Virus record (IMG/VR): IMGVR_UViG_3300035208_002098
Location: 64,001 to 128,000 of that record
Reading direction: 5' to 3' (one strand)
DNA length: 64,000 bases
From: a virus
Taxonomy: Duplodnaviria > Caudoviricetes
Below are positions 29,271 to 53,879 of the stretch, piece after piece. Numbering within the stretch: position 1 is the stretch's first letter; each line of letters opens with the position of its first letter. Below the pieces are notes generated by a model. It was not told where the DNA came from. It ran no database searches and worked only from the letters and a program-made list of their open reading frames with translations. Made by a program: the position numbers and the translations under genes.

Positions 29271-29343
29271 TGTCCCTAATCGGGTTCGAACCGATGCACA
29301 CAGGCTTTTAGAGGGCCCGGCTCTGCCACTGAGCTATAAGGAC
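29271..29343 (-). tRNA. amber suppressor tRNA (anticodon CTA)
   Basis: GTCCTTA/TAGGGAC acceptor, GCTC/GAGC D arm, loop CTCTAAA, TTCGAAC T loop. Confidence 0.82.
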
Positions 29344-31087: not shown

Positions 31088-31184
31088 AATATATTATTTA
31101 TTAATACTTCTGCAAATATATAACAAATAAATGAGACTACCAAATAATTTTAGGATTTTTTTAATATATTGGAAATAAATTTTG

Positions 31185-31255
31185 AGCTACTAACAAGAAT
31201 TGAACTTGCATCTCACCCATACCAAGGGCGAATTCTACCGTTAAACTATAATAGC
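31185..31255 (-). tRNA. tRNA-Thr(GGT)
   Basis: cloverleaf, loop TTGGTAT. Confidence 0.8.
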
Positions 31256-31256
31256 A

Positions 31257-31673
31257 TTATTTGAGAACATTTTTTACAACACCTGTAATTTGAAACCTTT
31301 CAATTTCTACCCAATTAGTTATATCATTACTCATTACTGGTTTACCACCATCATTTACATTAACTGCGACTGTTATGTGTGGTATTTTATTGTTTGAATG
31401 ATAACCTTCAACTCTAACAGCTAAAGCTTTATTACTTACCCCTCTGTGAGTTACGGTTAATGTAACATTTTTAAATTCATCATCATTGATATTTAAATCT
31501 GCCAAACTTTTACCGAATTGTATTGTCATGTGATGAGCAAATGGTTTCCAACCTTCTGGAACACCAATTTTACTTAATAATATATTATGACTTTCTTCAT
31601 CTAAAACAACAGCACAATATAAGATATTGTTATCATACGATTCCCTTAACTTCTGTTTTATTAGATTTTTCAT
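31257..31673 (-). CDS. 2H phosphoesterase (tRNA-ligase CPDase-like or Acb1-like)
   Basis: two HxT motifs (HHMTI, PHITV); KLRE N-terminus. Confidence 0.72.
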   Translation of the reverse strand: MKNLIKQKLRESYDNNILYCAVVLDEESHNILLSKIGVPEGWKPFAHHMTIQFGKSLADLNINDDEFKNVTLTVTHRGVSNKALAVRVEGYHSNNKIPHITVAVNVNDGGKPVMSNDITNWVEIERFQITGVVKNVLK

Positions 31674-31736
31674 AGTATAAACTTTATTTTAATATAAATA
31701 TATCTAAAAATAAAAACATATTGGAAATAAATTTTG

Positions 31737-31808
31737 AGCAATAGAAGAATTTTGAAATCTCGACCTTGACATTGGCAATGTCACGCTCTGCCTCTGAGCT
31801 ACTACTGC
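31737..31808 (-). tRNA. tRNA-Gly(GCC)
   Basis: loop TTGCCAA, U73. Confidence 0.82.
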
Positions 31809-31852
31809 ATGGAGCCGGCACTGCGATTTAACAGTGAATCACCCGGCATTTG

Positions 31853-31999
31853 TGGGCTAGAGGGGATTTAAACCCGTTAGTTAATCACATACTTTTTATA
31901 GCTAATTATTATATGTAATTCTAACCTAATTAACCTTAGTCATTATAGACAGCCACCTTTATAACGATGACCCGAATTCATCACATTCGTAGCTAACCC
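31853..31999 (-). ncRNA. tRNA-like RNA (acceptor + T arm, long non-canonical interior)
   Basis: GGGTTAG/CTAGCCC-A ends and T-arm-like hairpin; no anticodon arm. Confidence 0.4.
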
Positions 32000-32004
32000 T
32001 TTTG

Positions 32005-32076
32005 AGTCGATAATCAGAATCGAACTGACATCCTCAGTTTGGTAAACTGACGCACTAACCGTTGTGCTATATCGAC
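32005..32076 (-). tRNA. tRNA-Gly(ACC)
   Basis: TCAGT-TTACCAA-ACTGA arm, U73. Confidence 0.82.
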
Positions 32077-32078
32077 AT

Positions 32079-32264
32079 TTATTTTAAACCATCTTTTATT
32101 AAAAATTTTAATTTTAATTTAGCTTTATCGTATTTAGCTTTAGTCTTTTCAAACTCTTCAGATGATACATTATCTTTAAAGTTTTTACTATCTAAACGTT
32201 TCTTTAGAAATTCAACATATTTCTCTTCTTGACCTATTAAATCAATTTTTTTATTTTTACCCAT
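32079..32264 (-). CDS. small hypothetical protein
   Basis: 61-aa ORF filling the gap between tRNAs. Confidence 0.55.
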   Translation of the reverse strand: MGKNKKIDLIGQEEKYVEFLKKRLDSKNFKDNVSSEEFEKTKAKYDKAKLKLKFLIKDGLK

Positions 32265-32281
32265 AATTAAAAATTTTATTG

Positions 32282-32366
32282 AGCCTTCTGTCAGATTCGA
32301 ACTGACGTGTCATTTGCATGAACCGGGTTACAAATCCGGTATAATCGACCACTATATGAAGAAGGC
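32282..32366 (-). tRNA. tRNA-Thr(TGT) with long variable arm
   Basis: GCCTTCT acceptor, loop TTTGTAA, extra arm TCATGCAAATGA. Confidence 0.72.
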
Positions 32367-32434
32367 ATGGTCGGAGGTAGCTTTTCCCATTCGTTCCGCT
32401 TCAAAAGCTTACGGTTAACAATGGTACCCCCGTT

Positions 32435-32511
32435 TGGAGCCACAAGAGGGACTCGAACCCCCAACACCCTGATTACAAGTCAGGTACTCTACCAATTAAA
32501 GCTATTGTGGC
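32435..32511 (-). tRNA. tRNA-Thr(TGT)
   Basis: CCTGA-CTTGTAA-TCAGG, encoded CCA. Confidence 0.88.
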
Positions 32512-32671
32512 AATTATTTTACATCTATAAATTCAATAGATGTTATTTCAGAATTGTTTTGAATAGATTCAAAACTCTCATGTAATGTTTTATTTTTACA
32601 CGATTCTAATATTTCACTTAACCAATGAAATGCTGATTTGTCTACTATTATTTTCATATTATGTTTTTTAG

Positions 32672-32743
32672 TGCAGTAATTCGGACTTGAACCGAAAACC
32701 CTCTCATTGGAAGTGAGACGCTCTTCATTGGAGCTATTACTGC
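32672..32743 (-). tRNA. tRNA-Gly(TCC)
   Basis: TCTCA-CTTCCAA-TGAGA. Confidence 0.8.
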
Positions 32744-32799
32744 GTTATTTATTCTAAATCCTATGACATATATTCAATATCATGTTATTATTAATAATT

Positions 32800-33063
32800 A
32801 AATAGATGACCGTAGCCAAGGTTCTGTTTTAATCTAACATTTATCTATATATCATATGATATATCCGGTTTTTCATTCCGGTGCCACTACCTGTCTATCA
32901 TCGCAATCTGAGGACCCTTGCTAAGACTAATTTGTGTTGCATCCCATGTTGCAGTGGTATAACGTATAAATTAATATACTTCCACTTCTCAGAGAGATGC
33001 CTTGAACTTCCTCTTCACCACATTTAGTATTATGTGATAAAGCGTTAGAATGCCTGTCTATTT
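32800..33063 (-). ncRNA. rnpB: compact RNase P RNA
   Basis: GAGGAAGTTCAAGGC and AGATAAATG...AACAGAACCTTGGCTA signatures with complementary P4; P1, P2, P3, P5, P6 and P18 pairings are traceable. Confidence 0.82.
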
Positions 33064-33064
33064 A

Positions 33065-33552
33065 TTATTTATTATTTTTTAATTGTTCTTTAATTTTATT
33101 ATCCCATAAATTAGTATCACGTAATTTAGTTAATCGTTTACAAAATTCTGATTCAGTTAATACTGTTTCACTTTGTTTATTTTTACCTATTGAATGTGTG
33201 AATACAGCATCATTAGTTGATAACAAATCTTTCTTAAAATTTTCATTAGTAAATAAAGCTTCGTATGCTCTATTTAATAATTCTTGGTATTCTTTAGATT
33301 TTCTCTGGAATGCTTCACCTTTCCACCATAATGTTTGTCCTGTTTTCCAAGCTTTATTACGACCACTACCTCGTTTCTTAGCACCAAACCCAACCAATTT
33401 ACAAACCTCAGCTTGAATAACTCATTCTCGAATTTAAAGGATTGTAATAACCCTTCCATTGATGCACATTCAACACCATCAAATATAAATTGTCTAGCCG
33501 TAAAATTACTTAGTCTACCAGCAACACCTTTATTATTTCCACCTATATCCAT
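33065..33552 (-). pseudogene. NADAR-family protein (T4 gp30.3-like), frameshifted near 33420
   Basis: LSNF...DGVECASMEGLLQSFK then, in another frame, QAEVCKLVGFGAK...LWWKG...HSIG...TVLTESEF. Confidence 0.72.
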
Positions 33553-33618
33553 ATCATTATATTTTAATCAAAGTTACTACTTTTTATCTATTAAAACAAG
33601 TAATTAATACTATTTTTG

Positions 33619-33750
33619 TGACCCACGTTTGGAATCGAACCTAACACTTTTAATAAACTCATAAATGATATTTATTAAATTACCGAAGTCTTTTATTTGC
33701 TAGTAATACTCTTCCGAGCCCGTAACGATACCAACAGCAAGACGCAGACC
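33619..33750 (-). ncRNA. tRNA-like RNA without canonical D/anticodon arms
   Basis: G:U-rich acceptor and GGTTCGATTCC T arm. Confidence 0.4.
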
Positions 33751-33760
33751 AATTTATTTG

Positions 33761-33857
33761 TGGGTCACAGGGGTATCGAACCCCACGTCATCTTATTCAC
33801 ATAAGATTTACCATGTATGTTATACTTTAACTCAACGTCAATCTCAATACGCAGCCC
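33761..33857 (-). ncRNA. mini tmRNA-TLD-like RNA
   Basis: 5' GGGCTGCGTATTGAGATTGACG and 3' GACGTGGGGTTCGATACCCC...CCCA. Confidence 0.4.
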
Positions 33858-33863
33858 ATATTG

Positions 33864-33945
33864 TCCATCCGGTTGGATTCGAACCAACGCAACCCATATT
33901 AAAAGTATGGTGCCTCTCGCTTACGCTCCACTCGGCCACGGATGG
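33864..33945 (-). tRNA. tRNA-Lys(TTT) with enlarged D loop
   Basis: CCATA-CTTTTAA-TATGG; extra CGTAAGCG in D loop. Confidence 0.75.
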
Positions 33946-33954
33946 AAATTTTTG

Positions 33955-34039
33955 TGTATCCGGTGGGGCTCGAACCCACGTTGAACATACTGTTCCTACA
34001 TTAAAAGTGTAGAGCCTAAACCAACTCGGCCACAGATAC
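33955..34039 (-). tRNA. tRNA-Lys(TTT) with long variable arm
   Basis: CTACA-CTTTTAA-TGTAG; extra arm GAACAGTATGTTC. Confidence 0.78.
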
Positions 34040-34041
34040 AT

Positions 34042-34485
34042 TTATATTATGTCTTTATACCAATTAAATTGTTTAGCAGTTCTTCTCCTATGACAATTGG
34101 CACATCTAACATCACATTTTTTAATTTCTTCTAATATCACACCCCAAGAATACCCAGCATTAACCATATTACCAACACCATCTATTTTATCAACATTATC
34201 TTTATGGTCAAATTCTAATACAATAGGGTCTTTTTCACCACAATCAATACAATATGATTGTGATAGAACATCGAAATATTTTCTTTGGTTTTCTTTTCTA
34301 ATTCGTTTATTTCGTTCACCAATAATTATTTTATGTTTTTCTCTATTATCATTATAATATTCTTTAGATTTAAGATTACTACATTCACGACAAATATTAC
34401 TATGTCCATCTTTACGAGTTTTATTTTTATTAAAATCAGTTAATATCTTGATTTCTTTACATTTAGTACATATTTTAGTTTCCAT
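34042..34485 (-). CDS. HNH homing endonuclease
   Basis: CTKC, CIDC...LEFDH...CANCHRRRT. Confidence 0.85.
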   Translation of the reverse strand: METKICTKCKEIKILTDFNKNKTRKDGHSNICRECSNLKSKEYYNDNREKHKIIIGERNKRIRKENQRKYFDVLSQSYCIDCGEKDPIVLEFDHKDNVDKIDGVGNMVNAGYSWGVILEEIKKCDVRCANCHRRRTAKQFNWYKDII

Positions 34486-34544
34486 ATTTTTTCATTTAAT
34501 ATAATAAACTTTTAAACAAAAGTAAATGTTAAAAGCTATTGTTG

Positions 34545-34617
34545 TCACCCCAAAGAGACTTGAACTCTTGACTCCGATATTAAAAGTATCGTACTCTACC
34601 AACTGAGTTATGAGGTG
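34545..34617 (-). tRNA. tRNA-Lys(TTT)
   Basis: CGATA-CTTTTAA-TATCG. Confidence 0.85.
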
Positions 34618-34705
34618 AAAAAGAAAGATGAATTTAAAGGAGGGATTAAGTTAGAAAAAATCCATCTCTCAAAGGATAACATTATCAGCACAATAATGTC
34701 AAGTG

Positions 34706-34791
34706 TATCGTATGTGGGATTCGAACCCACGAATCGATTACTCGAAGCCAGCTTGAAAAGCTGGTGACCTAGGCCGCTAGTCTAATACGAC
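34706..34791 (-). tRNA. tRNA-Glu(TTC) with long variable arm
   Basis: CCAGC-TTTTCAA-GCTGG; extra arm TCGAGTAATCGA. Confidence 0.78.
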
Positions 34792-34800
34792 ATAATATTG

Positions 34801-34872
34801 TAGCCCGTAGGGGAATCGAACCCCTGATTCTAGGTTGAAAACCTAACGACTTAACCGTTTGTCCAACGGGCC
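34801..34872 (-). tRNA. tRNA-Glu(TTC)
   Basis: TTAGG-TTTTCAA-CCTAG. Confidence 0.85.
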
Positions 34873-34896
34873 ATTTAATAAAATTTATTTGATTTG

Positions 34897-34970
34897 TCAC
34901 ACATACCGGATTCGAACCGGTGATTTTTTGGTTGAAAACCAAACGTCCTAGGCCTCTAGACGAATGTGCG
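34897..34970 (-). tRNA. tRNA-Glu(TTC)
   Basis: TTTGG-TTTTCAA-CCAAA. Confidence 0.85.
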
Positions 34971-35027
34971 AAATTGCGAGATAAACTCGCATTATTAAAG
35001 GGCAACCGGGTAGGTCGACATGTATAA

Positions 35028-35378
35028 TTACCCTTTAAAATAAGATGAATTAGCAAATTTAGCTTCTCTTGCAAAATCAGTATCATCGTGAACGTATTGA
35101 TTGAATTCTCTAGATTCTAATTGAACAATTGTTTCAACTTCCATAGTAAACATTAGAATTAATTTATCGTATTCTTCTGTTTTATCTACTGGTTGTATTA
35201 AATTTAAACGAATGTTTGTATCACCGTTATTAGCTTTTTTTAATAAGAATTTTAATTGTTTTAAAGCCTCTTCTTTATAATCGATTAATGCTTGTTGATA
35301 ATCAATTATATGTTGTTGTTTATTAGCTTTAATTTTTTCAATTAAGTCACTTTTGTTTACATTGATAATTCTACTCAT
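35028..35378 (-). CDS. hypothetical phage protein
   Basis: 116-aa ORF within the tRNA array. Confidence 0.6.
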   Translation of the reverse strand: MSRIINVNKSDLIEKIKANKQQHIIDYQQALIDYKEEALKQLKFLLKKANNGDTNIRLNLIQPVDKTEEYDKLILMFTMEVETIVQLESREFNQYVHDDTDFAREAKFANSSYFKG

Positions 35379-35445
35379 AATTTTTATTTTTAATTTATGT
35401 TATTTTAAGAATAACAAAAATATATAATAAATTAAAAGATATCAA

Positions 35446-35844
35446 CTAAAAATTCACTTTTCTTTTATCAGTAACTAAAATATCATCATTTCTATCTAAT
35501 GTAATATATTCTAAATTTACTAATTCAAATTCTTTAAGATGTTCTATAACTTCATTAGCTGTAAATTCACTACAAGAATATATATCAAACTGAAATTTTT
35601 GTGGTGTTTCTGAGTCCCACACATGCATACTGGCATGTGATGTAGCTAAAGTAACAGTACCGGTTACACCTTCATTACCTAAATCATCAACATATACTGA
35701 TGTTGGTCCGGCCACAACTTTCATTCGTACTTTTTCAACTAATATACTTAACCATAAATTTAATTCTTTAACTGTTTTAGGTGCTTTTTTACATTCACCC
35801 TTACAAATAAAGTGTAGGTGATTTGGCTTGAAAATTTCATTCAT
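35446..35844 (-). CDS. speD: S-adenosylmethionine decarboxylase proenzyme
   Basis: GVTGTVTLATSHASMHVW, DIYSC. Confidence 0.82.
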   Translation of the reverse strand: MNEIFKPNHLHFICKGECKKAPKTVKELNLWLSILVEKVRMKVVAGPTSVYVDDLGNEGVTGTVTLATSHASMHVWDSETPQKFQFDIYSCSEFTANEVIEHLKEFELVNLEYITLDRNDDILVTDKRKVNF

Positions 35845-35906
35845 TTATTAAAATTATTACGATAATATTATTTAATAAATAAATATCAAGAAAACCATTA
35901 AAATTG

Positions 35907-35979
35907 TTGCGATAAAAGGATTCGAACCTTTGTTTGCGGTCTCCACGACCACCGTCCTGAACCACTAGACGATACCGCT
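35907..35979 (-). tRNA. atypical tRNA, anticodon TGG or undetermined
   Basis: good D and T arms; loop CGTGGAG lacks U33. Confidence 0.5.
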
Positions 35980-36076
35980 GAAACTCATTAAAATTTAGAC
36001 TGCATTCTTAACTTTTTTGAGATTGCTTAATATAATTCCGATATTTGCAGTTACGGTTTCATATCAAGTAATTTTG

Positions 36077-36157
36077 TGGGGCTGATGGGATTCGAACCCA
36101 CTAAGCGTAGCAGCGGTTTTACAGACCGCCTCAACTCTCCAACGTTGACGCATCCCC
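36077..36157 (-). tRNA. tRNA-Tyr(GTA), atypical D arm
   Basis: GCGGT-CTGTAAA-ACCGC. Confidence 0.78.
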
Positions 36158-36165
36158 AAATAGAG

Positions 36166-36247
36166 TGGGAGTAGTTGGACTCGAACCAACGAAGACCGAA
36201 GTCGAGGGATTTACAGTCCCTTGCAATTGCCGCTATGCGATACTCCC
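36166..36247 (-). tRNA. tRNA-Tyr(GTA)
   Basis: AGGGA-CTGTAAA-TCCCT, class II arm. Confidence 0.88.
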
Positions 36248-36255
36248 AAGTTAGA

Positions 36256-36390
36256 ACAGGTTTGTCTTTTTGCGTTCTATTGCTCTACCAACTGAGCTAT
36301 ACCCCCAATATTAATATTTGTGGGGGCAATGGGATTCGAACCACATGACCCATAGATTTACCTAGCTTTTTATTTGCTGAATCAAACCTT
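36256..36390 (-). ncRNA. YrlA-like Y RNA (circularly permuted tRNA module)
   Basis: AGGTTTG..CAGCAA...CAAACCT closing stem; T arm precedes a looped acceptor stem and then the D arm. Confidence 0.68.
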
Positions 36391-36397
36391 TATCTAG

Positions 36398-36470
36398 TCG
36401 AGTATGCTGGCATCGAACCGACCAAGCGATGCCTCCAATGCACCGCTGCCTAAACCTTGGTCAATACTCG
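36398..36470 (-). tRNA. tRNA-Pro(TGG), atypical
   Basis: C1-G72, A73, GGTGC-ATTGGAG-GCATC. Confidence 0.6.
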
Positions 36471-36476
36471 TTAAAG

Positions 36477-36547
36477 TTGTCCTACTAAGATTCGAACTTA
36501 GAACAACGGTATCAAAAACCGTTGTGTTACCATTACACCATAGGACA
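36477..36547 (-). tRNA. tRNA-Gln(TTG)
   Basis: TGTCCTA acceptor, ACGGT-TTTTGAT-ACCGT. Confidence 0.85.
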
Positions 36548-36562
36548 ATGTTTATTTTTTTG

Positions 36563-36647
36563 CAGACCCCGTAAGACTCGAACTTACAAACCAATTAAAG
36601 GCATTAGATTCAAAATCTAACGTGTTTACCAATTCCACCAGAGGTCT
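36563..36647 (-). tRNA. tRNA-Gln(TTG) with Leu-like D arm and long variable arm
   Basis: TTAGA-TTTTGAA-TCTAA, G73. Confidence 0.75.
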
Positions 36648-36724
36648 AAAATATTTTTTTTATTTTATAATTATATTAAATACCGTATTACTAAATGATA
36701 TTTATTAGTATAATACTTAAAACA

Positions 36725-36895
36725 ATGAAATTAAATTATTCTGATAAAGTTAAATTCCTTAGTGGTGAATACCAAGATAAAATTGGTACTTATGTTGACG
36801 AAAATTCTAGTGCTTTTTTAATTAAACTAGATACCCAATCTATTATTATAATAGTAAGTAAATATAATACTGAAACAATTATAGAAAAAATATAG
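36725..36895 (+). CDS. small hypothetical protein antisense to the tRNA array
   Basis: MKLNYSDK start after GATATTTATT motif. Confidence 0.5.
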   Translation: MKLNYSDKVKFLSGEYQDKIGTYVDENSSAFLIKLDTQSIIIIVSKYNTETIIEKI

Positions 36896-36897
36896 AA

Positions 36898-36955
36898 ACA
36901 GGATTGACGTTGTTTCAATTAAAATTTGATTTTGTTTATTGCTGAACCAATCCTT
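36898..36955 (-). ncRNA. short Y-RNA-like CAGCAA stem element
   Basis: AGGATTG..CAGCAA...CAATCCTGT. Confidence 0.5.
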
Positions 36956-36965
36956 TATTCTATTG

Positions 36966-37050
36966 TCGAACTAGAGGGATTTGAACCCACAAACTAAGTT
37001 AATTACTCTTAGTACCACCTATGTACAGTATCACCGTAACAGTTAGCTCG
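36966..37050 (-). ncRNA. tRNA-like RNA without recognisable anticodon
   Basis: CGAGCTA/TAGTTCG-A acceptor and GGGTTCAAATCCC T arm. Confidence 0.45.
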
Positions 37051-37056
37051 TTATTG

Positions 37057-37131
37057 TCGGGATGGTGAGATTCGAACTCACGAACCGAAGCTTCCAAGGC
37101 CCCGTTGTATAACCATCTGCATAACATCCCG
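37057..37131 (-). tRNA. tRNA-Pro(TGG)
   Basis: CGGGATG acceptor, GGGGC-CTTGGAA-GCTTC. Confidence 0.78.
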
Positions 37132-37136
37132 TTTAG

Positions 37137-37207
37137 TCGAGTGATTTGGCATTCCACCAAATATACTAGGTCCCGATGACCACTGCACTATACTTGTGCT
37201 ACACTCG
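37137..37207 (-). tRNA. degenerate tRNA-Pro(CGG)-like
   Basis: Pro-type acceptor end; weak anticodon stem around ATCGGGA; non-canonical T loop. Confidence 0.4.
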
Positions 37208-37218
37208 TTATTTTATTC

Positions 37219-37996
37219 CCAATATGTCAATGAAAATTGGTTTTTGTAAAATATCTAGATATTTATAGATATATACAAATTATTATGATACCATTATACA
37301 CTGAAGAAGAATTTAAAACCGCCAAATCATTTGATGAATTATCATGCCAATGTTTAATTTGTGGTAAAACATTTAAACAAAAAAAATACATTGTAAAAAT
37401 GGCTTTAAGTCCAAAATATGAAAGGACTGGTGATTTTTGTTCACTTACATGTCAACAAAAATCTAATATAAAAAAAGATACATTTAAAATATTTAATTGT
37501 TGTAATTGCAATAAAGAAATTATAAAACAATCGTCAGCCAGTAAACGTCATAAAAATACTTTCTGTTCACATTCATGCTCTACAAAATATTTAAATTCAC
37601 ATAAAACTACCGGTACAAGACGTTCTAAATTAGAAATGTATGTTGAAGAACAACTTACATTACTTTACCCTAATCTAGATATTAAATATAATGATAAATC
37701 AGTTATTAATTCTGAATTAGATATCCACATACCATCACTTAACTTAGCATTCGAACTTAATGGTATATTCCATTATGAACCAATATTCGGTGTTAATAAA
37801 TTAGACCAAATACAAACTAATGATATATCTAAATCAAAAGCCTGTATAGATGCAAAGATTGATTTATGTATAATAGATACATCTGGTCATAAATATGTTA
37901 AACCTAAAACTAGTGAAAAATATCTTAATATTATAATTAAAATTATTAACACTAGATTAGCCTAACTTTTTAAAATTTATCCAATATGTCAATGAA
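37219..37996 (+). mobile_element. endonuclease cassette bounded by a 16-bp direct repeat
   Basis: CCAATATGTCAATGAA at 37219-37234 and 37981-37996. Confidence 0.7.
37285..37965 (+). CDS. zinc-ribbon + PD-(D/E)xK homing endonuclease
   Basis: CxxC...FCSxxC repeats, ELDIHIP...AFELNGIFH. Confidence 0.78.
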   Translation: MIPLYTEEEFKTAKSFDELSCQCLICGKTFKQKKYIVKMALSPKYERTGDFCSLTCQQKSNIKKDTFKIFNCCNCNKEIIKQSSASKRHKNTFCSHSCSTKYLNSHKTTGTRRSKLEMYVEEQLTLLYPNLDIKYNDKSVINSELDIHIPSLNLAFELNGIFHYEPIFGVNKLDQIQTNDISKSKACIDAKIDLCIIDTSGHKYVKPKTSEKYLNIIIKIINTRLA

Positions 37997-37998
37997 CT
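37981..37998 (-). promoter_or_regulatory. boxA-like antitermination element
   Basis: AGTTCATTGACATATTGG; related copies at 46956-46967 and 53342-53359. Confidence 0.6.
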
Positions 37999-38042: not shown

Positions 38043-38081
38043 AAAAACAAAAAACCCAATCTACATTTCTGAGGATTGGGT
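38043..38081 (-). terminator. attenuator terminator of tRNA operon A
   Basis: ACCCAATC-loop-GATTGGGT followed by a U-rich tract; 5' arm also complementary to GGATTGGGT (38136-38144) in the leader ORF. Confidence 0.85.
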
Positions 38082-38114
38082 CTTTATATTATTTTGAAAG
38101 AATACTCTAATTCT

Positions 38115-38201
38115 TTACATAAAATTATATAACATACCCAATCCGTTTTGGCCCTCGCCTTTCGGTTGTTTCGTTCCTTGATATGTTGTATACGTTTTCA
38201 T
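38115..38201 (-). CDS. leader peptide MKTYTTYQGTKQPKGEGQNGLGMLYNFM
   Basis: 28-codon ORF between promoter and terminator, A-rich initiation region. Confidence 0.8.
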   Translation of the reverse strand: MKTYTTYQGTKQPKGEGQNGLGMLYNFM

Positions 38202-38231
38202 TGTTTTAATTTTTATATTTTTAATATTCTA

Positions 38232-38314
38232 TTGTTTGTTTATAAATATACTGCAAAGATATGAAAAGTTTCAATACGAGTCAAGTATTTTCGCATTTAT
38301 TTTCAAATTATTTT
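38232..38314 (-). promoter_or_regulatory. tandem promoter of tRNA operon A (83-bp repeat, copy 1)
   Basis: CTTG...TATCTTTG followed by TATATTTATA; 3 mismatches versus 53797-53879. Confidence 0.8.
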
Positions 38315-40814: not shown

Positions 40815-41507
40815 CTATTTGATTAAATTAGTGATAGCTTCAGCAATTTCAGGTTTACCAATTAATCTTTCAATTGGGTCAGTATCACCATATGTTCGAA
40901 ATAAGTTTAGATTTGTTTTTTCTAATAAATACCCAATGTGTTGATTTTCACGAACCATTTCAACATTATCATTAGCTATAACGGCATCGGAACCACTTTT
41001 ATCCATTGATTCAATAGCTATTGTAAATAATTCATTTAATGTTAAACCAACTTCATATTTAAAACTAACTAAATAAACATTGGGATTCCATTGCTTAATC
41101 ATAGGTAAAACCTTTGGGTTAACTTTAATAGTTTCTCTCATATATTCTATAAAACCTTCTGGGTCATTACTTTTAAGTTTAACCGGTTTAGTTCTATCAA
41201 AACCAAAATCACTAACGGCCATTGCGTGAATAACCACATCCATATTTGGTACTAACTCACTCATTATGGCTACTAGTGAGTTTACATCACTAATCTCATG
41301 ATATCTAATATTTCTATGATTACCATATAAGTTGTATAGTGTTGGTTTACGACTACCCGTTGCATAAACATAATATACTTCATAACCTAACTCATCAAAT
41401 TGTTGTGCTATTTCAGTACTTAAATTACCAGTACTAATATTAGTTAAAACACGAACATCATCAATATGTTCTTTAGTACCACCAGCTGTTATTAAAACTT
41501 TTTTCAT
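40815..41507 (-). CDS. coaB: phosphopantothenate-cysteine ligase
   Basis: LITAGGTKEHIDDVRVLTNISTG, HAMAVSDF, SFKYE, IAND. Confidence 0.88.
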   Translation of the reverse strand: MKKVLITAGGTKEHIDDVRVLTNISTGNLSTEIAQQFDELGYEVYYVYATGSRKPTLYNLYGNHRNIRYHEISDVNSLVAIMSELVPNMDVVIHAMAVSDFGFDRTKPVKLKSNDPEGFIEYMRETIKVNPKVLPMIKQWNPNVYLVSFKYEVGLTLNELFTIAIESMDKSGSDAVIANDNVEMVRENQHIGYLLEKTNLNLFRTYGDTDPIERLIGKPEIAEAITNLIK

Positions 41508-41508
41508 A

Positions 41509-42597
41509 TTATATTTCTTTTGAATTAATTAAATATTGTGTTGGGTCTAATAACCCTTTAGGTTTTGATTCACCTATAAGCCAATCACCATTGTGTAGTG
41601 TATCTTTATCATGTAAAGCTAAATGTAACATACTCATTGGCCTACCTTTATCATGTTTTATTACTGTTCTAACTAAACCAATGGAATCACCAGCTTTAAT
41701 TATATTACCAACTTCTAAATCCTTAAATACCTCAATTTCACCATACACAACAATACCGGAATTACCTCTTGCATAAATAGCTTGTGTGTCATTCCACCAT
41801 GGATAACCAGCAGATGGACCGGTGAAAGCACATATTTCAAGTATTTCACCATCTTCAACTGCTTTAACGATAGCACCATCCGGAGCATATAAATCAACAC
41901 CTTTATGATGGTCGTGTCTTCTACGTACACCTAACGAACCAACGTGTGGGTATATTGGAATATCACATACTTTAGATAAATCAATTTGTCTATTTTCATC
42001 TAAATAATCCAAAAATGAATAAGAGTCATTTGTTGCTATTCGTTTTTTCGAATTTAATGGCCATACCCATTGTTTACTATTATTATATATTTCAAGTGAT
42101 TTACTAACAATATACTCTGGGTCGGGTAATTTACCAATCCCAATAACACCACAAGCTAATAAACCCTCTGTCGCACCAATTATATGATACCCATATGATA
42201 TTAACCCATTAATATTACTTTGAACTATGGGGTTATTATACATCTCAGTATTCATTGCCGGACAAATAATTTTAATTGTATTTTTTGGTATAGCTAAATT
42301 AATTGTTGATACTAAATCATCTGCAATACCATGATAATATTTACCAATAATATTTGCTGTAGCTGGTACAGTTAAAAATATATCACACGATTGAGCTTCT
42401 TCAATATGTGAAATATCGTGTACATTTTCAACAATAAATTTATTAGCTAGTACCCCTACTACAGTTGGTGTTATAAATTTAGTAGCGTTATCCGTCATAA
42501 CAACATGAACTGTGTGGTCACAACCTTTAAATATATTGATAATACTAGCTACTTTATATGCTGCTATACCGCCAGATATGGCAATTAAAACTTTCAT
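41509..42597 (-). CDS. coaC: phosphopantothenoylcysteine decarboxylase fused to an M23-peptidase-like domain
   Basis: ISGGIAAYK, PATANIIGK, PAMNTEM, LACG; then HKGVDLYAP...YGE...MLHL. Confidence 0.82.
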   Translation of the reverse strand: MKVLIAISGGIAAYKVASIINIFKGCDHTVHVVMTDNATKFITPTVVGVLANKFIVENVHDISHIEEAQSCDIFLTVPATANIIGKYYHGIADDLVSTINLAIPKNTIKIICPAMNTEMYNNPIVQSNINGLISYGYHIIGATEGLLACGVIGIGKLPDPEYIVSKSLEIYNNSKQWVWPLNSKKRIATNDSYSFLDYLDENRQIDLSKVCDIPIYPHVGSLGVRRRHDHHKGVDLYAPDGAIVKAVEDGEILEICAFTGPSAGYPWWNDTQAIYARGNSGIVVYGEIEVFKDLEVGNIIKAGDSIGLVRTVIKHDKGRPMSMLHLALHDKDTLHNGDWLIGESKPKGLLDPTQYLINSKEI

Positions 42598-42602
42598 AAT
42601 TA

Positions 42603-43055
42603 TTACATTAAATAATTTAACACTGACTCCCAATCGGGAAATTTTTCTGTTCCAAAATGAATATGTTCCCATTCAGGGATAAAATGACCTGATTGTGGTA
42701 CATCATCAATAAGATAATTACCCCTAGCAATTGTTTTATCTGGGCATAATATAAGACTATGACACATTTCAAAACCTAAATGTTTCTCAATCCAAACCCG
42801 TTTTTCGGTGTATGATAATGGATTAAGAACTGATGGTTTAGTTAATATATAAACTCTATATTTTGTTTTAAGTTTATTTACACCATCTATGGCACCCGGA
42901 ATAGGTTCTAGATTTTCAAAAAATTTATATTGGCTCTGAGGCAATTTATTTCCGGGATTTTCGTGTAATGCTTTCCAAGCAGCATCTCTAAATTTACATA
43001 TGGTATCGTCCATATCTACATATACAACTTCCCGATTATCAACTTCTTCAATCAT
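42603..43055 (-). CDS. 5'(3')-deoxyribonucleotidase (NT5C, HAD)
   Basis: VDMDDTI, EKRVWIEKH, YLIDD. Confidence 0.85.
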   Translation of the reverse strand: MIEEVDNREVVYVDMDDTICKFRDAAWKALHENPGNKLPQSQYKFFENLEPIPGAIDGVNKLKTKYRVYILTKPSVLNPLSYTEKRVWIEKHLGFEMCHSLILCPDKTIARGNYLIDDVPQSGHFIPEWEHIHFGTEKFPDWESVLNYLM

Positions 43056-44815: not shown

Positions 44816-44841
44816 ACATTTGTTTTTAAAATTAATAAAAG

Positions 44842-44925
44842 TGATGGTAATGGGATTCGAACCAACATACGTCATGACCTTCCGATTAAATGTCGGGTGC
44901 TCTAACCAGACTGAGCTATACCATC
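44842..44925 (-). tRNA. atypical tRNA (TTT anticodon, A33, long variable region)
   Basis: canonical D/T arms; CCGA-CATTTAA-TCGG. Confidence 0.55.
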
Positions 44926-45062
44926 ATAAGTTTTTTAGTTGGTCAGGGCCAACATAGAACCGTATTTACCAAACTAAAAGCCCCACATGTGTCGGATGTG
45001 AACCGGTGGTTTATATTCTTGATTATCGAGCATTTAAAACAACCTAAAACTTTCGCTACGTG

Positions 45063-45189
45063 TGGTGATAATAGGATTTGAACCTATGCCATTATAAAGT
45101 TAATAGAAATCTCAATTAACCATTCAATTTCATCTTTATAACCTAACCTAACTATCGTTAGTGCTCTCACCGGACTGAGCTATACCATC
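45063..45189 (-). ncRNA. tRNA-like RNA with tetraloop in place of the anticodon loop and a giant variable arm
   Basis: GCTC/GAGC D arm, CTAAC-GATA-GTTAG, about 55-nt extra arm, T arm. Confidence 0.6.
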
Positions 45190-45381
45190 ATTTTTGCCCT
45201 TAAGTTGAACACATGAGAGTTCAGTTATTGCCTTGGGACTTTTGGCTATTTAATACTAAATAAATACCCTCATGGACTTAACTACATTACCACTACTCTC
45301 TTTATCTCCTACTTATTTTTAGCTCTTTACCTTTGTAGTAGACTCAAGCCTTATTAAAGTGTACGTTCAACGAACAACCTG

Positions 45382-45476
45382 TGATACTAGATGGACTCGA
45401 ACCAACAACCCCTTGACCTACTTTACACATCATGTATTTCGTTGCAAGTCCTCTACCAATTAAGAGATATAGTACC
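45382..45476 (-). ncRNA. tRNA-like RNA with extended anticodon-position hairpin
   Basis: GGTACTA/TAGTATC acceptor, D and T arms, CTTG...CAAG enclosing about 29 nt. Confidence 0.55.
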
Positions 45477-45518
45477 AAATTAATTTTTTATCTATTCAAT
45501 ATTCCATAATGTCTAAAG

Positions 45519-45590
45519 TGGTGATGGGTGGAATTGAACCACCGACACATGGATTTTCAGTCCATTGCTCTACCCCTGAGCTACATCACC
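45519..45590 (-). tRNA. tRNA-Phe(GAA)
   Basis: ATGGA-CTGAAAA-TCCAT, canonical. Confidence 0.9.
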
Positions 45591-45912: not shown

Positions 45913-46010
45913 AAATTTAACAATCTCTTACTTAAAGACAATCCACGAATTCCTAAACTCGCTTCTAAGCCCCTACTACTTCTTAAATTGTTTAATATTA
46001 AAAAATTAAT

Positions 46011-46135
46011 AACAATATTGATTTTTTTACGTGCTCTACCAACTGAGCTATATTATCAATTACTTGATAATAGGTGGGTTCGAACCACCGACCACGAGCT
46101 TAACAGGCTGATTTTAAATTGCTGAAACAATATTT
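46011..46135 (-). ncRNA. YrlA-like Y RNA (circularly permuted tRNA module)
   Basis: AATATTG..CAGCAA...CAATATT closing stem; T arm, GTAA-capped acceptor stem, then D arm. Confidence 0.68.
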
Positions 46136-49448: not shown

Positions 49449-49520
49449 TAGTTTAATTATTATTTTGTATACATATATGTTTACTTATTTACATTTTTGT
49501 AAACATATGTGATGACTTTG

Positions 49521-49594
49521 TGGAGCCAATGGGACTTGAACCCACAACCTCTTCCGTGCAAGGGAAGTATTCTAGCCAATTGAAATATGACCCC
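49521..49594 (-). tRNA. tRNA-Ala(TGC)
   Basis: G3:U70, CTTCC-CTTGCAC-GGAAG. Confidence 0.88.
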
Positions 49595-49599
49595 ATTAT

Positions 49600-50253
49600 T
49601 TATTTTCTACCTTTTACCCAACCTTCGTTTTCCCAATTAGGTAAATCGTCTTTTTTAATTTTTTTATTGTTATTATCTTTAGTAATCCAACAAGTACCAT
49701 ATTGTGAATTAGTTTCACCAACACCAGTACCACTTTTAATTTTAGACATTTTAACTTTAGTTTCATTTGAATGGATTTTACCTGTCCAATCAGGTATTAC
49801 TATTTTACCATCTTTATGCGTGTTTTTAGCTAAATTAGAAACCCTAAGACGATGTATTTCTCGATAATCACTATCGTTCTTTAATCTATTACCGTGTGCC
49901 TCACCACCTTTTTTACATTGATTCGCTTTATTATTTAAACCATTTTCATTTATAATGTAAAAACTACCACTACCACCGACAACTAAATTCATACATTCTT
50001 TCTTAGCTATTTCACTTAATGTAACTACTTCTTCCTCACGTTTCTTTAATTCATCTCTACTTTCACAGAATTCTAATATTTCTCTATTAAAATTAGTTTT
50101 ACCATGTTTCTTAATTGCTCTACTTAATCTAGTTCCACTACCTAGATAACCATCTTCTAGGTTATTGGTACTATGCATTCCTATATAATATCTACCACTT
50201 AATAGGTTAGTAGTTTTATAGATAAAATGATATTGTTTTTCTTTTCTCGCCAT
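49600..50253 (-). CDS. Seg-like GIY-YIG homing endonuclease
   Basis: FIYKTTN...YYIGMHST...YLGSG. Confidence 0.88.
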   Translation of the reverse strand: MARKEKQYHFIYKTTNLLSGRYYIGMHSTNNLEDGYLGSGTRLSRAIKKHGKTNFNREILEFCESRDELKKREEEVVTLSEIAKKECMNLVVGGSGSFYIINENGLNNKANQCKKGGEAHGNRLKNDSDYREIHRLRVSNLAKNTHKDGKIVIPDWTGKIHSNETKVKMSKIKSGTGVGETNSQYGTCWITKDNNNKKIKKDDLPNWENEGWVKGRK

Positions 50254-50319
50254 AATATTCGTACTTTATTATATAAATATCATGTCATATTCAAAAAGTA
50301 CAAAAACATGACATTTGTG

Positions 50320-50391
50320 CGGCTTATCCGGGACTCGAACCCGGTTCTCCAGCGTGACAAGCTGGAAGGATAACCCATACCCTAATAAGCC
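50320..50391 (-). tRNA. tRNA-Asp(GTC)
   Basis: CCAGC-TTGTCAC-GCTGG, G73. Confidence 0.8.
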
Positions 50392-50396
50392 AAGTG

Positions 50397-50474
50397 CGGA
50401 CTAGAGGGAATTCGAATCCCTGTTTTAGAGGAGTGACAGTCCAATTCTCACACGCCAGTTGAGCACCCTAGTCC
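50397..50474 (-). tRNA. tRNA-Asp(GTC), atypical
   Basis: GGA-CTGTCAC-TCC, G73. Confidence 0.62.
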
Positions 50475-50475
50475 A

Positions 50476-51075
50476 TTATTTAATATTTTTACCACCATGT
50501 GTATCCAATGTTGCATTACAATTCGGACATACAATACGTAAATTTTCTATTCTATTATCATCATTAATACCATTTATATGGTCTAATATTAATGACATAT
50601 GTTTACCATCCCATTCTTCACCTTGACCACATAATTCACATTTACGTTCTTTTAAACCTTCTTTATATAATCTTTCTTTAAGGTTGGTAGTATAAATATA
50701 TGTAGAATTTTCAACTAATATTTCACTTAAATTTTTTTTAGCTGACGGTGTTTTCATACCATTCCTAAAATGAGAAATATCACATTTATATATTTTTATA
50801 TATTTTTTAATTGTTTGTCTATTACCCATTGTTGTAGATAGTTTTAAATTTCTACAAACATCTACATAATTAATAGAGTTTTTAATAATTTCAGTGAAAT
50901 ATAATTCTTCATATCTTTTATTAGGTAATCGTTTAATACCAAGTTTATCTATTTTTTGTTTAACATTTTTAATGTTTCTACCAGATAATAGTTCAAAGCA
51001 GTATTTACAACCATATTCTGGGTAATTGTTATATAAAATATCAATCTCATCCTTAGTCCATAATTTTCCAACCAT
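50476..51075 (-). CDS. HNH homing endonuclease
   Basis: CELC...LDHING...NLRIVCPNC. Confidence 0.88.
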   Translation of the reverse strand: MVGKLWTKDEIDILYNNYPEYGCKYCFELLSGRNIKNVKQKIDKLGIKRLPNKRYEELYFTEIIKNSINYVDVCRNLKLSTTMGNRQTIKKYIKIYKCDISHFRNGMKTPSAKKNLSEILVENSTYIYTTNLKERLYKEGLKERKCELCGQGEEWDGKHMSLILDHINGINDDNRIENLRIVCPNCNATLDTHGGKNIK

Positions 51076-51099
51076 ATATATTTATTTTTTAATTATTTG

Positions 51100-51171
51100 T
51101 GCCTAGAGTTGGAATTGAACCAACGACACCCGGCTCTTCAAACCGGTGCTCTACCCCTGAGCTACCTAGGC
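51100..51171 (-). tRNA. tRNA-Phe(GAA)
   Basis: CCGGT-TTGAAGA-GCCGG. Confidence 0.88.
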
Positions 51172-51259
51172 TTTTTAAGGTTTTACCCTTATATTTTAAT
51201 TAATTTATAAGGTTATAAGCTTATAAACATACTTTATAAGCCTTTAAGCTTATATTTTG

Positions 51260-51290
51260 TGGAACCAATCGGAGTTGACCCGATGTCTAA
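51260..51290 (-). pseudogene. 3' remnant of a tRNA-Ala or tmRNA
   Basis: GAC-ATCGG-GTCAACT-CCGAT-TGGTTCC-A abutting the HNH stop; no 5' half seen. Confidence 0.45.
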
Positions 51291-51788
51291 CTAATGATTT
51301 CTTATATACTCTAATAACTTTTCATCATTATGTTTATTATGTTCCTCACTATGACAATTACCACATAATAATATACACTTATCTAATTCATTTTTTAACA
51401 CATCCCAACTTTTATTAGATGAACTAGAAATTGTGAATTCTTTTTCATTTTGTGATAAATGATGAAATTGTAGTCCTGATAAAGATTTATTATACCCACA
51501 TATTTGACAACAACCACCTTTATAGTCAATTGCTCTTACTTTAAATTTATATCTTCTCACCCTAATAGCACATGCACCACACGTTGACCGGTTTTTAAAA
51601 TTATTTTCAATTTCATGCCCACAAATAACACAATTATAATTTTTTACTTTTTCATTAGACTTAGTTAAACCTAATTTTTTTAATAATCTACCAACTGTTG
51701 TATCGTGACAATTTAAAATTGCACCTATTTTAACATTAGATAAACCACTTTCATACAGCCTTATTAACTCTTTTTCATCAACACCCAT
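51291..51788 (-). CDS. HNH homing endonuclease
   Basis: KGGCCQICGY...LQFHH...LCGNCHSEEH. Confidence 0.88.
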   Translation of the reverse strand: MGVDEKELIRLYESGLSNVKIGAILNCHDTTVGRLLKKLGLTKSNEKVKNYNCVICGHEIENNFKNRSTCGACAIRVRRYKFKVRAIDYKGGCCQICGYNKSLSGLQFHHLSQNEKEFTISSSSNKSWDVLKNELDKCILLCGNCHSEEHNKHNDEKLLEYIRNH

Positions 51789-51820
51789 ATTTTTATATTT
51801 AATAATTTAATTATATTTTG

Positions 51821-51901
51821 TACTCTCGATGAGATTTGAACTCACACATCTTTCGATACCGGGTTTTGAATCCAGCTTGTCTACCGTTCCAGCACGAGAG
51901 C
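51821..51901 (-). tRNA. tRNA-Leu(CAA)
   Basis: loop TTCAAAA, class II arm, A73. Confidence 0.85.
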
Positions 51902-52003
51902 TTAATAAACCTATTTTTGCATGATAAACCAACCTAGTTTATTGTGCATAATAACATCGTTTTTACATAATATCATAATACATGTTATTATGCACGATTT
52001 ATG

Positions 52004-52660
52004 TTATTGTATAATATTTATTTTTCTACCTTTACACCACCCATTAGATTCATATTCAACTAATAATTCTACCTTAATCTTTTTATTACTATCTTCTTTG
52101 GTAATCCAACAAGTACCATAAGATGGGTTTTTATCACCATCATATTTACCTTTCATAGAATTAGATAAATTACTTTTAGTTTCATTAGTATGTTTTTTAT
52201 TTTTAAAGTTAGCGTGATTAAAATTAATCCGTTTATGACTATCACTTATTTTTTTACAATATTCTTTATACCAATCTTCATCATTTTCTCTCAACCATTT
52301 TATAATTTTATGTGATGCTTCATAATTAACCGTTTCAAAAAATTTTTTTCTATGTTCCTCACTACTAAAACCACCACCACCACCAACTTGTAAATTCATA
52401 CATTCTTTCTTAGCTATTTCACTTAATGTAACTATTTCAGATTCACGTTTCTTTAATTCTTCTCGTGAAGAACAGAATTCTAATATCACCCTACTAAAGT
52501 TCTCTTTACCGTGTTTCTTAATTGCTCTACTAATTAAATAACCACTACCTAGATAACCATCTTCTAAGTTATCTGTGCTATGCATTCCTATATAATATCT
52601 ACCACTTAATAAATTAGTAGTCTTATAGATGAAATGATATAATTTTTGTTTTCTTGCCAT
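52004..52660 (-). CDS. Seg-like GIY-YIG homing endonuclease (paralog of 49600-50253)
   Basis: near-identical N-terminal 95 aa and YGTCWITK tail. Confidence 0.88.
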   Translation of the reverse strand: MARKQKLYHFIYKTTNLLSGRYYIGMHSTDNLEDGYLGSGYLISRAIKKHGKENFSRVILEFCSSREELKKRESEIVTLSEIAKKECMNLQVGGGGGFSSEEHRKKFFETVNYEASHKIIKWLRENDEDWYKEYCKKISDSHKRINFNHANFKNKKHTNETKSNLSNSMKGKYDGDKNPSYGTCWITKEDSNKKIKVELLVEYESNGWCKGRKINIIQ

Positions 52661-52723
52661 GATATTTGTACTTTATTATAAATATCTAGTATTTACCAAA
52701 AAGTACAAAAACATGACATCGGG

Positions 52724-52806
52724 TGACCAAGGTGAGAGTCGAACTCACACGTCCTTTCAGACAGTAGCTTCTTAGACTACCGGGTCTGCCATTCCCCCAC
52801 TCGGCC
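52724..52806 (-). tRNA. tRNA-Leu(AAG)
   Basis: GTAGT-CTAAGAA-GCTAC, class II arm. Confidence 0.82.
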
Positions 52807-52814
52807 AATAAAAG

Positions 52815-52886
52815 CGGTCCGGAAGGGACTCGAACCCTCAACCATCTCGCAGACAACGAGTTATACCACCATTGTACTACCGGACC
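52815..52886 (-). tRNA. tRNA-Asp(GTC)
   Basis: CTCG-TTGTCTG-CGAG, G73. Confidence 0.72.
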
Positions 52887-53024
52887 ATTAATAAAAGTTT
52901 CTTATATCATCACATTGGCCAGATGTGACCTTCCTATCAATATATGTTTGTCGACCAACATAAATAATAAGTGATTTATCTCCCTCACTCACGGAGGGCC
53001 TTACATCATAAAGATTCTTTTCTG

Positions 53025-53107
53025 TGACCTCAATGGGAGTCGAACCCATACGCTCTTAGAGCATTGCCTTTTAAGGACAACGTGTCTACCAATTCCACCA
53101 TGAGGCC
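53025..53107 (-). tRNA. tRNA-Leu(TAA)
   Basis: TTGTC-CTTAAAA-GGCAA. Confidence 0.88.
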
Positions 53108-53112
53108 ATTTG

Positions 53113-53187
53113 CAGTATAGGTAGGATTTGAACCTACAACCATAGGAAGGCCGTTCCCGTGCTCACCCATCTTCTCGCTTCTATACT
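53113..53187 (-). tRNA. atypical tRNA-like RNA, anticodon undetermined
   Basis: AGTATAG/CTATACT acceptor and T arm; 5-nt loop CGGCC. Confidence 0.45.
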
Positions 53188-53253
53188 AACACCTAAATCT
53201 TATTACGTAATTATATAAATAGGTGTGGTGATTACCTTCAAAGTAACCATTTG

Positions 53254-53335
53254 TCCCCCAAGAGAGATTCGAACTCTCACGCATTTTCAGCCACGGCTTC
53301 TAAGACCGCTGTGTCTACCGTTCCACCATCGGGGG
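53254..53335 (-). tRNA. tRNA-Leu(TAG)
   Basis: GCGGT-CTTAGAA-GCCGT. Confidence 0.88.
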
Positions 53336-53367
53336 ATATTACCAATATTTCAATGAACTAAATCCAG

Positions 53368-53452
53368 TACGACCTGTAGGATTCGAACCTACGTTATACT
53401 ATTCGCCTCTACTGTGTAAAAGTAGTGCTCTTACCAACTGAGCTAAGGTCGC
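53368..53452 (-). tRNA. tRNA-Val(TAC) with long variable region
   Basis: CTACT-TTTACAC-AGTAG. Confidence 0.78.
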
Positions 53453-53459
53453 ATTTTTG

Positions 53460-53547
53460 AGTACCCGGTCAGATTTGAACTGACGATGAAGCTTTCGCTT
53501 TGGTGGTTTTGCAGACCACCCCCTTCGACCACTCGGAGCACAGATAC
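53460..53547 (-). tRNA. tRNA-Cys(GCA) with long variable arm
   Basis: GTGGT-CTGCAAA-ACCAC, U73, arm AAGCGAAAGCTT. Confidence 0.8.
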
Positions 53548-53591: not shown

Positions 53592-53627
53592 AAAAAAAAA
53601 GTCCAATTCTTTTGTAGAACCGGACTT
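53592..53627 (-). terminator. attenuator terminator of tRNA operon B
   Basis: AAGTCCGGTTCT-ACAAA-AGAATTGGACTT then U tract; 5' arm also pairs with AGAGGTCGGACT (about 53686-53697) in the leader ORF. Confidence 0.85.
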
Positions 53628-53662: not shown

Positions 53663-53770
53663 TTATTTATATAACTTATTAACGTAGTCCGACCTCTTTA
53701 ACGCATCAAATGCATCAAATAAGACTGCTGTACAATCTAGAAGGGCTAATATGTTAAAAGTTGTTATCAT
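53663..53770 (-). CDS. leader peptide MITTFNILALLDCTAVLFDAFDALKRSDYVNKLYK
   Basis: 35-codon ORF between promoter and terminator. Confidence 0.8.
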   Translation of the reverse strand: MITTFNILALLDCTAVLFDAFDALKRSDYVNKLYK

Positions 53771-53796: not shown

Positions 53797-53879
53797 TTGT
53801 TTGTTTATAAATATACTGCAAATATACGAAAAGTTTCAATACGAGTCAAGTATTTTCGCATTTATTTTTAAATTATTTT
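53797..53879 (-). promoter_or_regulatory. tandem promoter of tRNA operon B (83-bp repeat, copy 2)
   Basis: near-identical to 38232-38314. Confidence 0.8.

Follow-up and report, generated by a model that had tools for sequence, protein, structure and literature searches.

A candidate multivalent transcription attenuator with tRNA genes as its output in a phage genome

Introduction

In transcription attenuators such as thrL and ilvL of Escherichia coli, and likewise hisL, trpL, pheL and leuL, a leader open reading frame (ORF) with control codons is combined with 1:2, 2:3 and 3:4 RNA helices and an intrinsic terminator. The attenuator of the E. coli phenylalanyl-tRNA synthetase operon, pheST, monitors charged tRNA and regulates a component of the translation machinery; it differs from the phage cassettes described here in that it responds to one amino acid, has a protein output and is cellular. 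T-box riboswitches also sense tRNA via codon-like specifiers and control a terminator, but they do so without translation, with one specifier codon and with a conserved structure. Signs of leader-peptide attenuation have been described in flavobacteria (PMC9723704).

A tRNA array that is inducible upon impaired translation is known from Anabaena, in which the trn operon (the cyanobacterial tRNA L-array) is supernumerary and is induced when translation is impaired (PMC8421152). Unlike the phage system it is a single, cellular array, and its report mentions no attenuation, leader or terminator. Why phages carry tRNAs has been an open question for decades, and the work so far has dealt with which tRNAs they carry, not with when these are made. 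A reason to need replacement tRNAs comes from counter-defence, as in the case of PARIS/AriB and a virally encoded tRNA (PMC11464382) or of evasion through the anticodon loop (PMC10264068), although the abstracts of these studies do not mention that tRNA transcription is controlled by sensing demand. A preliminary description of the locus analysed here knew of no such control in phage tRNA operons, and the literature we searched, which covered few subscription journals, likewise contained no description of attenuation of phage tRNA genes.

Results

Genome and host

The window, a stretch of 64,000 nucleotides, comprises positions 64001-128000 of a virus contig of 248,412 bases with a GC content of 27.7%, which contains about 50 tRNA genes and one tmRNA. 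The nearest matches in protein searches were to uncultured huge phages at 45-48% identity, and no close cultured relative was recovered by blastn or tblastn. The phage gave no match to Terminase_6N, and a search for relatives via the upstream UVR-motif protein also recovered none. Its promoters fit TTG...TAnnTTTG, the consensus of Bacteroidota sigmaA (PMC9723704), and from this consensus, the sole basis of the assignment, the host is putatively placed in the Bacteroidota. A CRISPR-like repeat array is located behind a Bacteroidota promoter at genome positions ~27300-27500 (minus strand). A second, independent strain from a different study spans the whole of the cassette described next at about 96% identity, and the cassette is thus not an assembly artefact.

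Promoter, leader and terminator of cassette A

The promoter, leader ORF and terminator named in the preliminary description were all recovered where it had placed them, on the minus strand. Promoter A (38250..38290) has a -33 element TTG at 38284-38282 and a -7 element TAnnTTTG at 38261-38254, with a predicted transcription start near 38249. Since these elements are of the Bacteroidota sigmaA type, a sigma70-type identity was rejected, and a scan for promoters and terminators of the sigma70 kind overlooked both elements of the cassette because it used the wrong consensus. The 5' UTR (38202..38249) is A-rich and without a Shine-Dalgarno sequence, as in a Bacteroidota-style initiation region. 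An A at -3, -6 and -12 of the start was found in 76-85% of 34 cassettes (see below), a figure to which the cassette detector contributed by partly selecting for A-rich UTRs.

The leader ORF (38115..38201, start at 38201) is a short ORF between the promoter and the tRNA genes and encodes 28 amino acids; homologues of 28-35 amino acids were found in 10 other contigs. Codons 2-18 (38148..38198) are the control codons and specify K, T, Y, Q, G, P or E only, while codon 19 (Asn), not among these seven amino acids, is a spacer. Segment 2, the antiterminator strand (GGATTGGGT, 38136..38144), covers codons 20-22 and had been noted to be complementary to segment 3, the 5' arm of the terminator (ACCCAATCC, 38073..38081). 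Positions and duplex energy agree with this, the duplex having a predicted energy of -16.5 to -18.6 kcal/mol that was equalled by 0 of 300 codon shuffles. Segment 1, the protector (38163..38185), is the predicted partner of segment 2 before segment 3 has been made. Segment 4, the 3' arm of the terminator, occupies 38043..38061 together with the U tract, which reaches 38043. The resulting 3:4 hairpin is a predicted intrinsic terminator (-16.9 kcal/mol, z -5.1), and 0 of 200 shuffles were as stable.

Rfam families, amino-acid leaders and T-box included, were not found at leader A. The cassette was accordingly not assigned to the amino-acid biosynthetic attenuator family (thrL, hisL, trpL, ilvL), as tRNA genes lie downstream and the leader has no Rfam match, nor to the T-box riboswitches, which are defined by a T-box motif and a specifier loop in Stem I.

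Downstream of the terminator, at 37987..37998 (minus strand), is a motif that we take to be boxA-like; such a motif is likewise located downstream in cassettes B and C and could assist read-through over long distances while leaving the switch in control. Between the attenuator and the first tRNA gene lies a Cys-rich ORF of 242 amino acids on the plus strand (37237..37965), which looks endonuclease-like by eye and has no Pfam match. The boxA-like motif and the bases that come after it are duplicated on the two flanks of this inserted, opposite-strand ORF (37219-37237 and 37980-37998, minus strand). Further upstream, at 40815-42672 (minus strand), CoaB-like and CoaC-M23 fusion genes were observed.

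Leader A and its tRNA array

It had been claimed that the leader lists the amino acids of the downstream tRNAs. All 17 of codons 2-18 indeed fall within K/T/Y/Q/G/P/E, and all seven are present. These amino acids constitute 38.6% of the phage proteome (background 0.386), which gives a p value of about 1e-7 for a 17/17 match, and among the other 3,247 ATG-started, stop-free stretches of 18 codons in the genome none scored above 13/17. Array A (31184..37207, minus strand) contains tRNA genes for Pro, Gln, Tyr, Glu, Lys, Gly and Thr, as well as interspersed ORFs and degenerate Pro-like tRNAs. ARAGORN identified 18 tRNA genes in it between 37131 and 31184, among them a Trp(CCA) at 33863-33945 (minus strand) that we rejected, because its anticodon arm CCATA-CTTTTAA-TATGG is that of a tRNA-Lys(UUU). 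With this correction the inventory is the same seven amino acids, and the control codons are cognate to the product, which consists of tRNAs and not of biosynthetic enzymes. The caveat that internal promoters may separately serve the distal genes stands, since promoter matches at 35445, 33599 and 31143 may drive distal genes of the array.

Three Pro-like tRNA genes in this region (37140-37207, 36966-37050 and 36400-36469, minus strand) were missed by both ARAGORN and Rfam and have irregular anticodon arms that are CGG-, AGG- and TGG-like. Also located within the array are an AdoMet decarboxylase and a tRNA-ligase phosphodiesterase-like ORF (35446-35844 and 31257-31673, minus strand). Circularly permuted tRNA-like modules, with the 3' half first, occur at 36250-36392 and 46005-46129 (minus strand) in elements that open with a short strand plus CAGCAA, and a suppressor-type tRNA(CUA) with its own promoter matches lies past the array at 29270-29343 (minus strand).

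Cassettes B and C and the partition of the code

The promoter is present in three near-identical copies, the other two of which belong to cassette B in the window and cassette C outside it. In cassette B (minus strand), the promoter (53815..53856) is followed by a leader ORF of 35 amino acids (53663..53770) with its antiterminator strand at 53694-53686, a terminator (53592..53626) and an array of tRNA genes for Cys, Val, Leu, Asp, Phe and Ala (49520..53547); codons 8-24 of this leader specify L, A, D, C, V or F with the exception of one Thr. Cassette C (genome positions 150400-150660, minus strand) consists of a promoter, a 30-codon leader (150562), a terminator and tRNA genes. Its leader contains 21 consecutive R/N/I/H/S/W codons and its array comprises Asn, Trp, Ser, His, Ile, CAU and Arg tRNAs, the CAU tRNA being putatively Ile2-like, judging from the acceptor stem.

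The fractions of codons 2-18 that matched arrays A, B and C were 1.00, 0.00 and 0.00 for leader A, 0.18, 0.65 and 0.18 for leader B, and 0.00, 0.00 and 1.00 for leader C. The three cassettes split 19 amino acids among them without overlap. The other three CAU tRNAs are located in a separate Met cluster without a leader cassette and are initiator-like by eye (unpaired first pair or G-C-rich anticodon stem); we infer that a shortage of initiator tRNA could not trigger a switch of this kind. The Met cluster also contains a release-factor-like ORF (genome positions 159480-160155 and 162504-162870, minus strand) that by eye has a CTT TAG break like the RF2 frameshift, and the tmRNA is nearby. The detector found no cassette at the Phe/Lys tRNAs in window positions 44841-45590, nor at the tRNA array in W02:60-68 kb (L217), and some phage tRNAs are therefore ungated.

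Concordance of leaders and arrays in relatives

Relatives were sought by promoter pattern, leader pattern and neighbouring protein, which yielded 34 cassettes in about 18 related contigs, picked by eye from the detector output; the sole match in a genome-contig search was examined and is not a cassette. Several of the arrays are cut by contig ends, and ARAGORN tRNA calls were accepted as given, with one exception. The amino-acid groupings vary among relatives and include Q/F/T/V/L/M, E/R, C/V/L, D/E/F and G/P/A/Q/T, among others.

We compared the leader-array concordance with that of permuted pairs, a check proposed in the preliminary description, and it held both in sample and out of sample. 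For 33 cassettes, the match of the whole ORF to its own array was 0.54, as compared to 0.26 for permuted pairs (maximum 0.38 in 20,000 permutations, whose p values overstate independence since many cassettes are kin), and the coverage of the array by its own leader was 0.99 versus 0.64. The own pairing ranked first in 10/10 phages with at least 2 cassettes. Fourteen further cassettes with new groupings, from the GenBank huge phages LR745206, LR756501 and LR756500 that were reached through unrelated queries, yielded a match of 0.45 versus 0.20 (0/50,000 permutations; ranks 1/5040, 1/120 and 1/2), and in the two sets combined the own pairing came first in 13/13 phages. The match is confined to frame 0 of the leader (0.74 versus 0.29 and 0.22 in the shifted frames), and the ATG, the open frame and the stop codon are retained in 48 cassettes.

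Leaders and arrays also change together. Among 10 A-type homologues, a Glu control codon is present only in this phage, which is alone in having Glu tRNAs in this array, and Ala, Asp and Cys codons appear where Ala, Asp and Cys tRNAs join the array; leftover Thr and Gln codons persist in the common TYQ start. Control codons ending in G or C exceed the expectation from the codon usage of this genome (105 versus 44 in all cassettes, 6 versus 1.9 in A), an excess that may be due to RNA structure or to the sensing of minor isoacceptors. In the clade of L011, L012, L020, L022 and L042, the promoter is separated from the start of the A-type leader by a structured RNA of about 90 nt.

By inspection, two candidate cassettes were identified in the cultured Caulobacter phage phiCbK (L225:3041-3270 and ~4840-5003). 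In the first, the 45-codon CbK_gp083, rich in S/A/L/P/K/T, precedes a block of Pro/Lys/Leu/Ala/Ser tRNAs; in the second, an unannotated 32-codon ORF rich in F/V/Q/I/R precedes a Phe/Val/Ile/Gln block. Each of the two ORFs is followed by an annotated terminator.

Alternative folds and ribosome geometry

A terminator was present in every scored cassette. In 21 of the 34 cassettes, the stretch of the ORF with complementarity to the 5' arm of the terminator was better than at least 90% of codon shuffles; its median position is 57 nt ahead of the arm and 9 codons ahead of the leader stop. The sequence of the terminator arm varies, and its best pairing is with the ORF of the same cassette (mean -11.8 versus -7.7 kcal/mol), the own pairing being better than the mean of foreign pairs in 32/34 cassettes, and in A, B and C the best partner of each ORF is its own terminator arm. 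The antiterminator strand co-varies with the terminator arm between cassettes, and the complementarity of ORF and terminator has a combined p value of about 4e-18 over 34 non-independent cassettes. The 2:3 antiterminator is predicted to exclude the 3:4 terminator. This complementarity, together with the concordance statistics and the joint changes of leader and array, strongly disfavours the reading that the ORF encodes a functional peptide or arose by chance, that the terminator is a fixed dampener and that the tRNAs are made from internal promoters; internal promoter-like sites do exist, yet we consider this very unlikely.

The codon profile has the geometry expected of a stalled-ribosome switch. 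From -8 to -4 codons relative to segment 2 the match between codons and array reaches 0.86-1.0, from -3 onwards it is 0.57 at most, and the break at about 4 codons before segment 2 thus corresponds to one ribosome footprint, as such a switch predicts. We also used a ribosome-position model in which the footprint was blocked in silico and the nascent RNA then folded. In this model a ribosome on the control codons leaves segment 2 free and one that has moved past them covers it: for leader A, 2:3 pairing was possible with the A site at codons 2-16, lost at codons 18-27 and regained at the stop codon. The last codon that freed 2:3 was E16/G17 in A, A23 in B and S19 in C, and the predicted switch points of B and C fall at the ends of their matched codon runs. 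Applied to E. coli thrL and hisL, the same model gave an antiterminator that was open over the control codons and closed right after them, while the pattern for ilvL was less clean.

T-box riboswitches, too, combine a terminator/antiterminator pair with a correspondence of codons and anticodons, and one could imagine that uncharged tRNAs pair with the leader codons, or that a protein flips the terminator, with no translation involved. We regard this as extremely improbable, given that no Rfam family was found at the leader, that 48 cassettes retain the ATG, the reading frame and the stop codon, that only the leader's own frame matches, with the matching codons ending short of segment 2 by the footprint of one ribosome, and that as many as 11 amino acids occur in one leader.

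In leader A, codons 6-13 are the predicted partner of segment 2 until segment 3 has been made, with a 1:2 probability of 0.97 without a ribosome and 0.90 with a ribosome at the stop codon. Across cassettes the predicted 1:2 helix ranges from 0.9-0.97 in A and 0.68 in B to 0.03-0.31 in C. The ribosome-free full transcript of A is predicted to fold as 1:2 plus 3:4, which is the classical off state. At equilibrium, the full transcript prefers the terminator at almost every ribosome position, and the switch must therefore be kinetic. The thrL and hisL controls likewise fold to the terminator, so that nothing can be learned about the switch from folding the full transcript at equilibrium. In contrast to thrL and hisL, segment 2 is here re-exposed once the ribosome reaches the stop codon in the model, and shut-off would thus rely on timing or on refolding of 1:2, which is weak in C (P 0.03).

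Discussion

The locus is, in all likelihood, a multivalent ribosome-mediated transcription attenuator with tRNA genes as its output. It works like attenuation of the thrL/ilvL type in its testable defining features, with the exception of a uniformly strong 1:2 helix. It differs from that type in that the output consists of phage-encoded tRNA genes instead of biosynthetic enzymes, in that 1 to about 11 amino acids are represented per leader, often by 1-2 codons each and not by runs, in that several cassettes split the code, and in the position of segment 2 relative to the stop codon.

The following sequence of events is proposed. Host sigmaA polymerase would initiate at promoter A and a ribosome would load on the 28-codon leader, which is presumably translated. 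With plentiful supply of the seven aminoacyl-tRNAs, codons 2-16 would be crossed fast and segment 2 covered (A site at codons 17-27); segment 2 would then refold with segment 1, 3:4 would form and transcription would stop at about 38045. If any of the seven tRNAs were missing, cleaved or uncharged, the ribosome would linger at codons 2-16, leaving segment 2 free as segment 3 emerges, and formation of 2:3 would permit read-through into array A. The switch would thus be a race in which slow decoding of any control codon leads to read-through, presumably in this folding order and direction also in vivo. New tRNAs would speed up decoding of the leader and turn the array off again, a negative feedback. 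Cassettes B and C would do likewise for the remaining amino acids, so that decoding would be monitored in three channels. The phage, then, probably makes a set of tRNAs only when ribosomes read the matching codons slowly.

According to the Elf-Ehrenberg model, a single codon per amino acid gives low sensitivity to mild limitation (PMC1183508). Pro and Glu are represented by one codon each in leader A, and their sensitivity to mild limitation is thus expected to be low. In this model-based view the switch should respond weakly to mild starvation and strongly to severe loss of a single tRNA, which fits nuclease attack and plain homeostasis alike.

What purpose such a switch would serve may be read in two ways. 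As a sub-case of ribosome-mediated attenuation, it may act specifically in counter-defence by sensing host tRNA cleavage by anticodon nucleases and supplying replacements, a tentative reading to which we give slightly less than an even chance. Host defences are reported to cleave tRNAs, with phage tRNAs rescuing infection (PMC11464382, PMC10264068); with 1-2 codons per amino acid, a good response is expected only to a severe slowdown (PMC1183508); and an extra tRNA would be no cure for amino-acid starvation. Attack by host anticodon nucleases is plausible as a signal, but the cassettes span 19 amino acids, not just the few usual nuclease targets, and loss of one member would induce the whole array. 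The same switch could alternatively be homeostatic, an autoregulation that caps the output of phage tRNAs and matches supply to the codon load of the phage mRNAs, regardless of what slowed decoding. The near-identical promoters, the division of the code without overlap and the feedback that follows from the anatomy speak for this possible, if rather doubtful, purpose; the control codons, rich in G/C-ending triplets, are however not those that dominate phage mRNA, for which RNA structure is an alternative cause.

Attenuation by ribosome position, whatever its purpose, would be extended by these cassettes to tRNA genes and to viruses, with highly multivalent leaders, and a built-in demand sensor would make tRNA arrays conditional. 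Such a sensor would be a direct reporter of the tRNAs that run short during infection, and could separate codon compensation from replacement after nuclease attack. The design is testable in the cultured phage phiCbK. Leaders can also help to annotate odd phage tRNAs, as leader A does by exposing the mis-called Trp gene. It is conceivable, with the odds perhaps marginally against it, that many large phages, among them Bacteroidota jumbo phages as well as phiCbK, use modular sets of attenuators to sample nearly every aminoacyl-tRNA and to induce the matching block of replacements when a part of the tRNA pool is destroyed by host defence or by the phage. If so, this would be an inducible counter-defence with ribosome speed as its readout, and each leader would spell out the tRNAs that form a single unit of supply for the phage.
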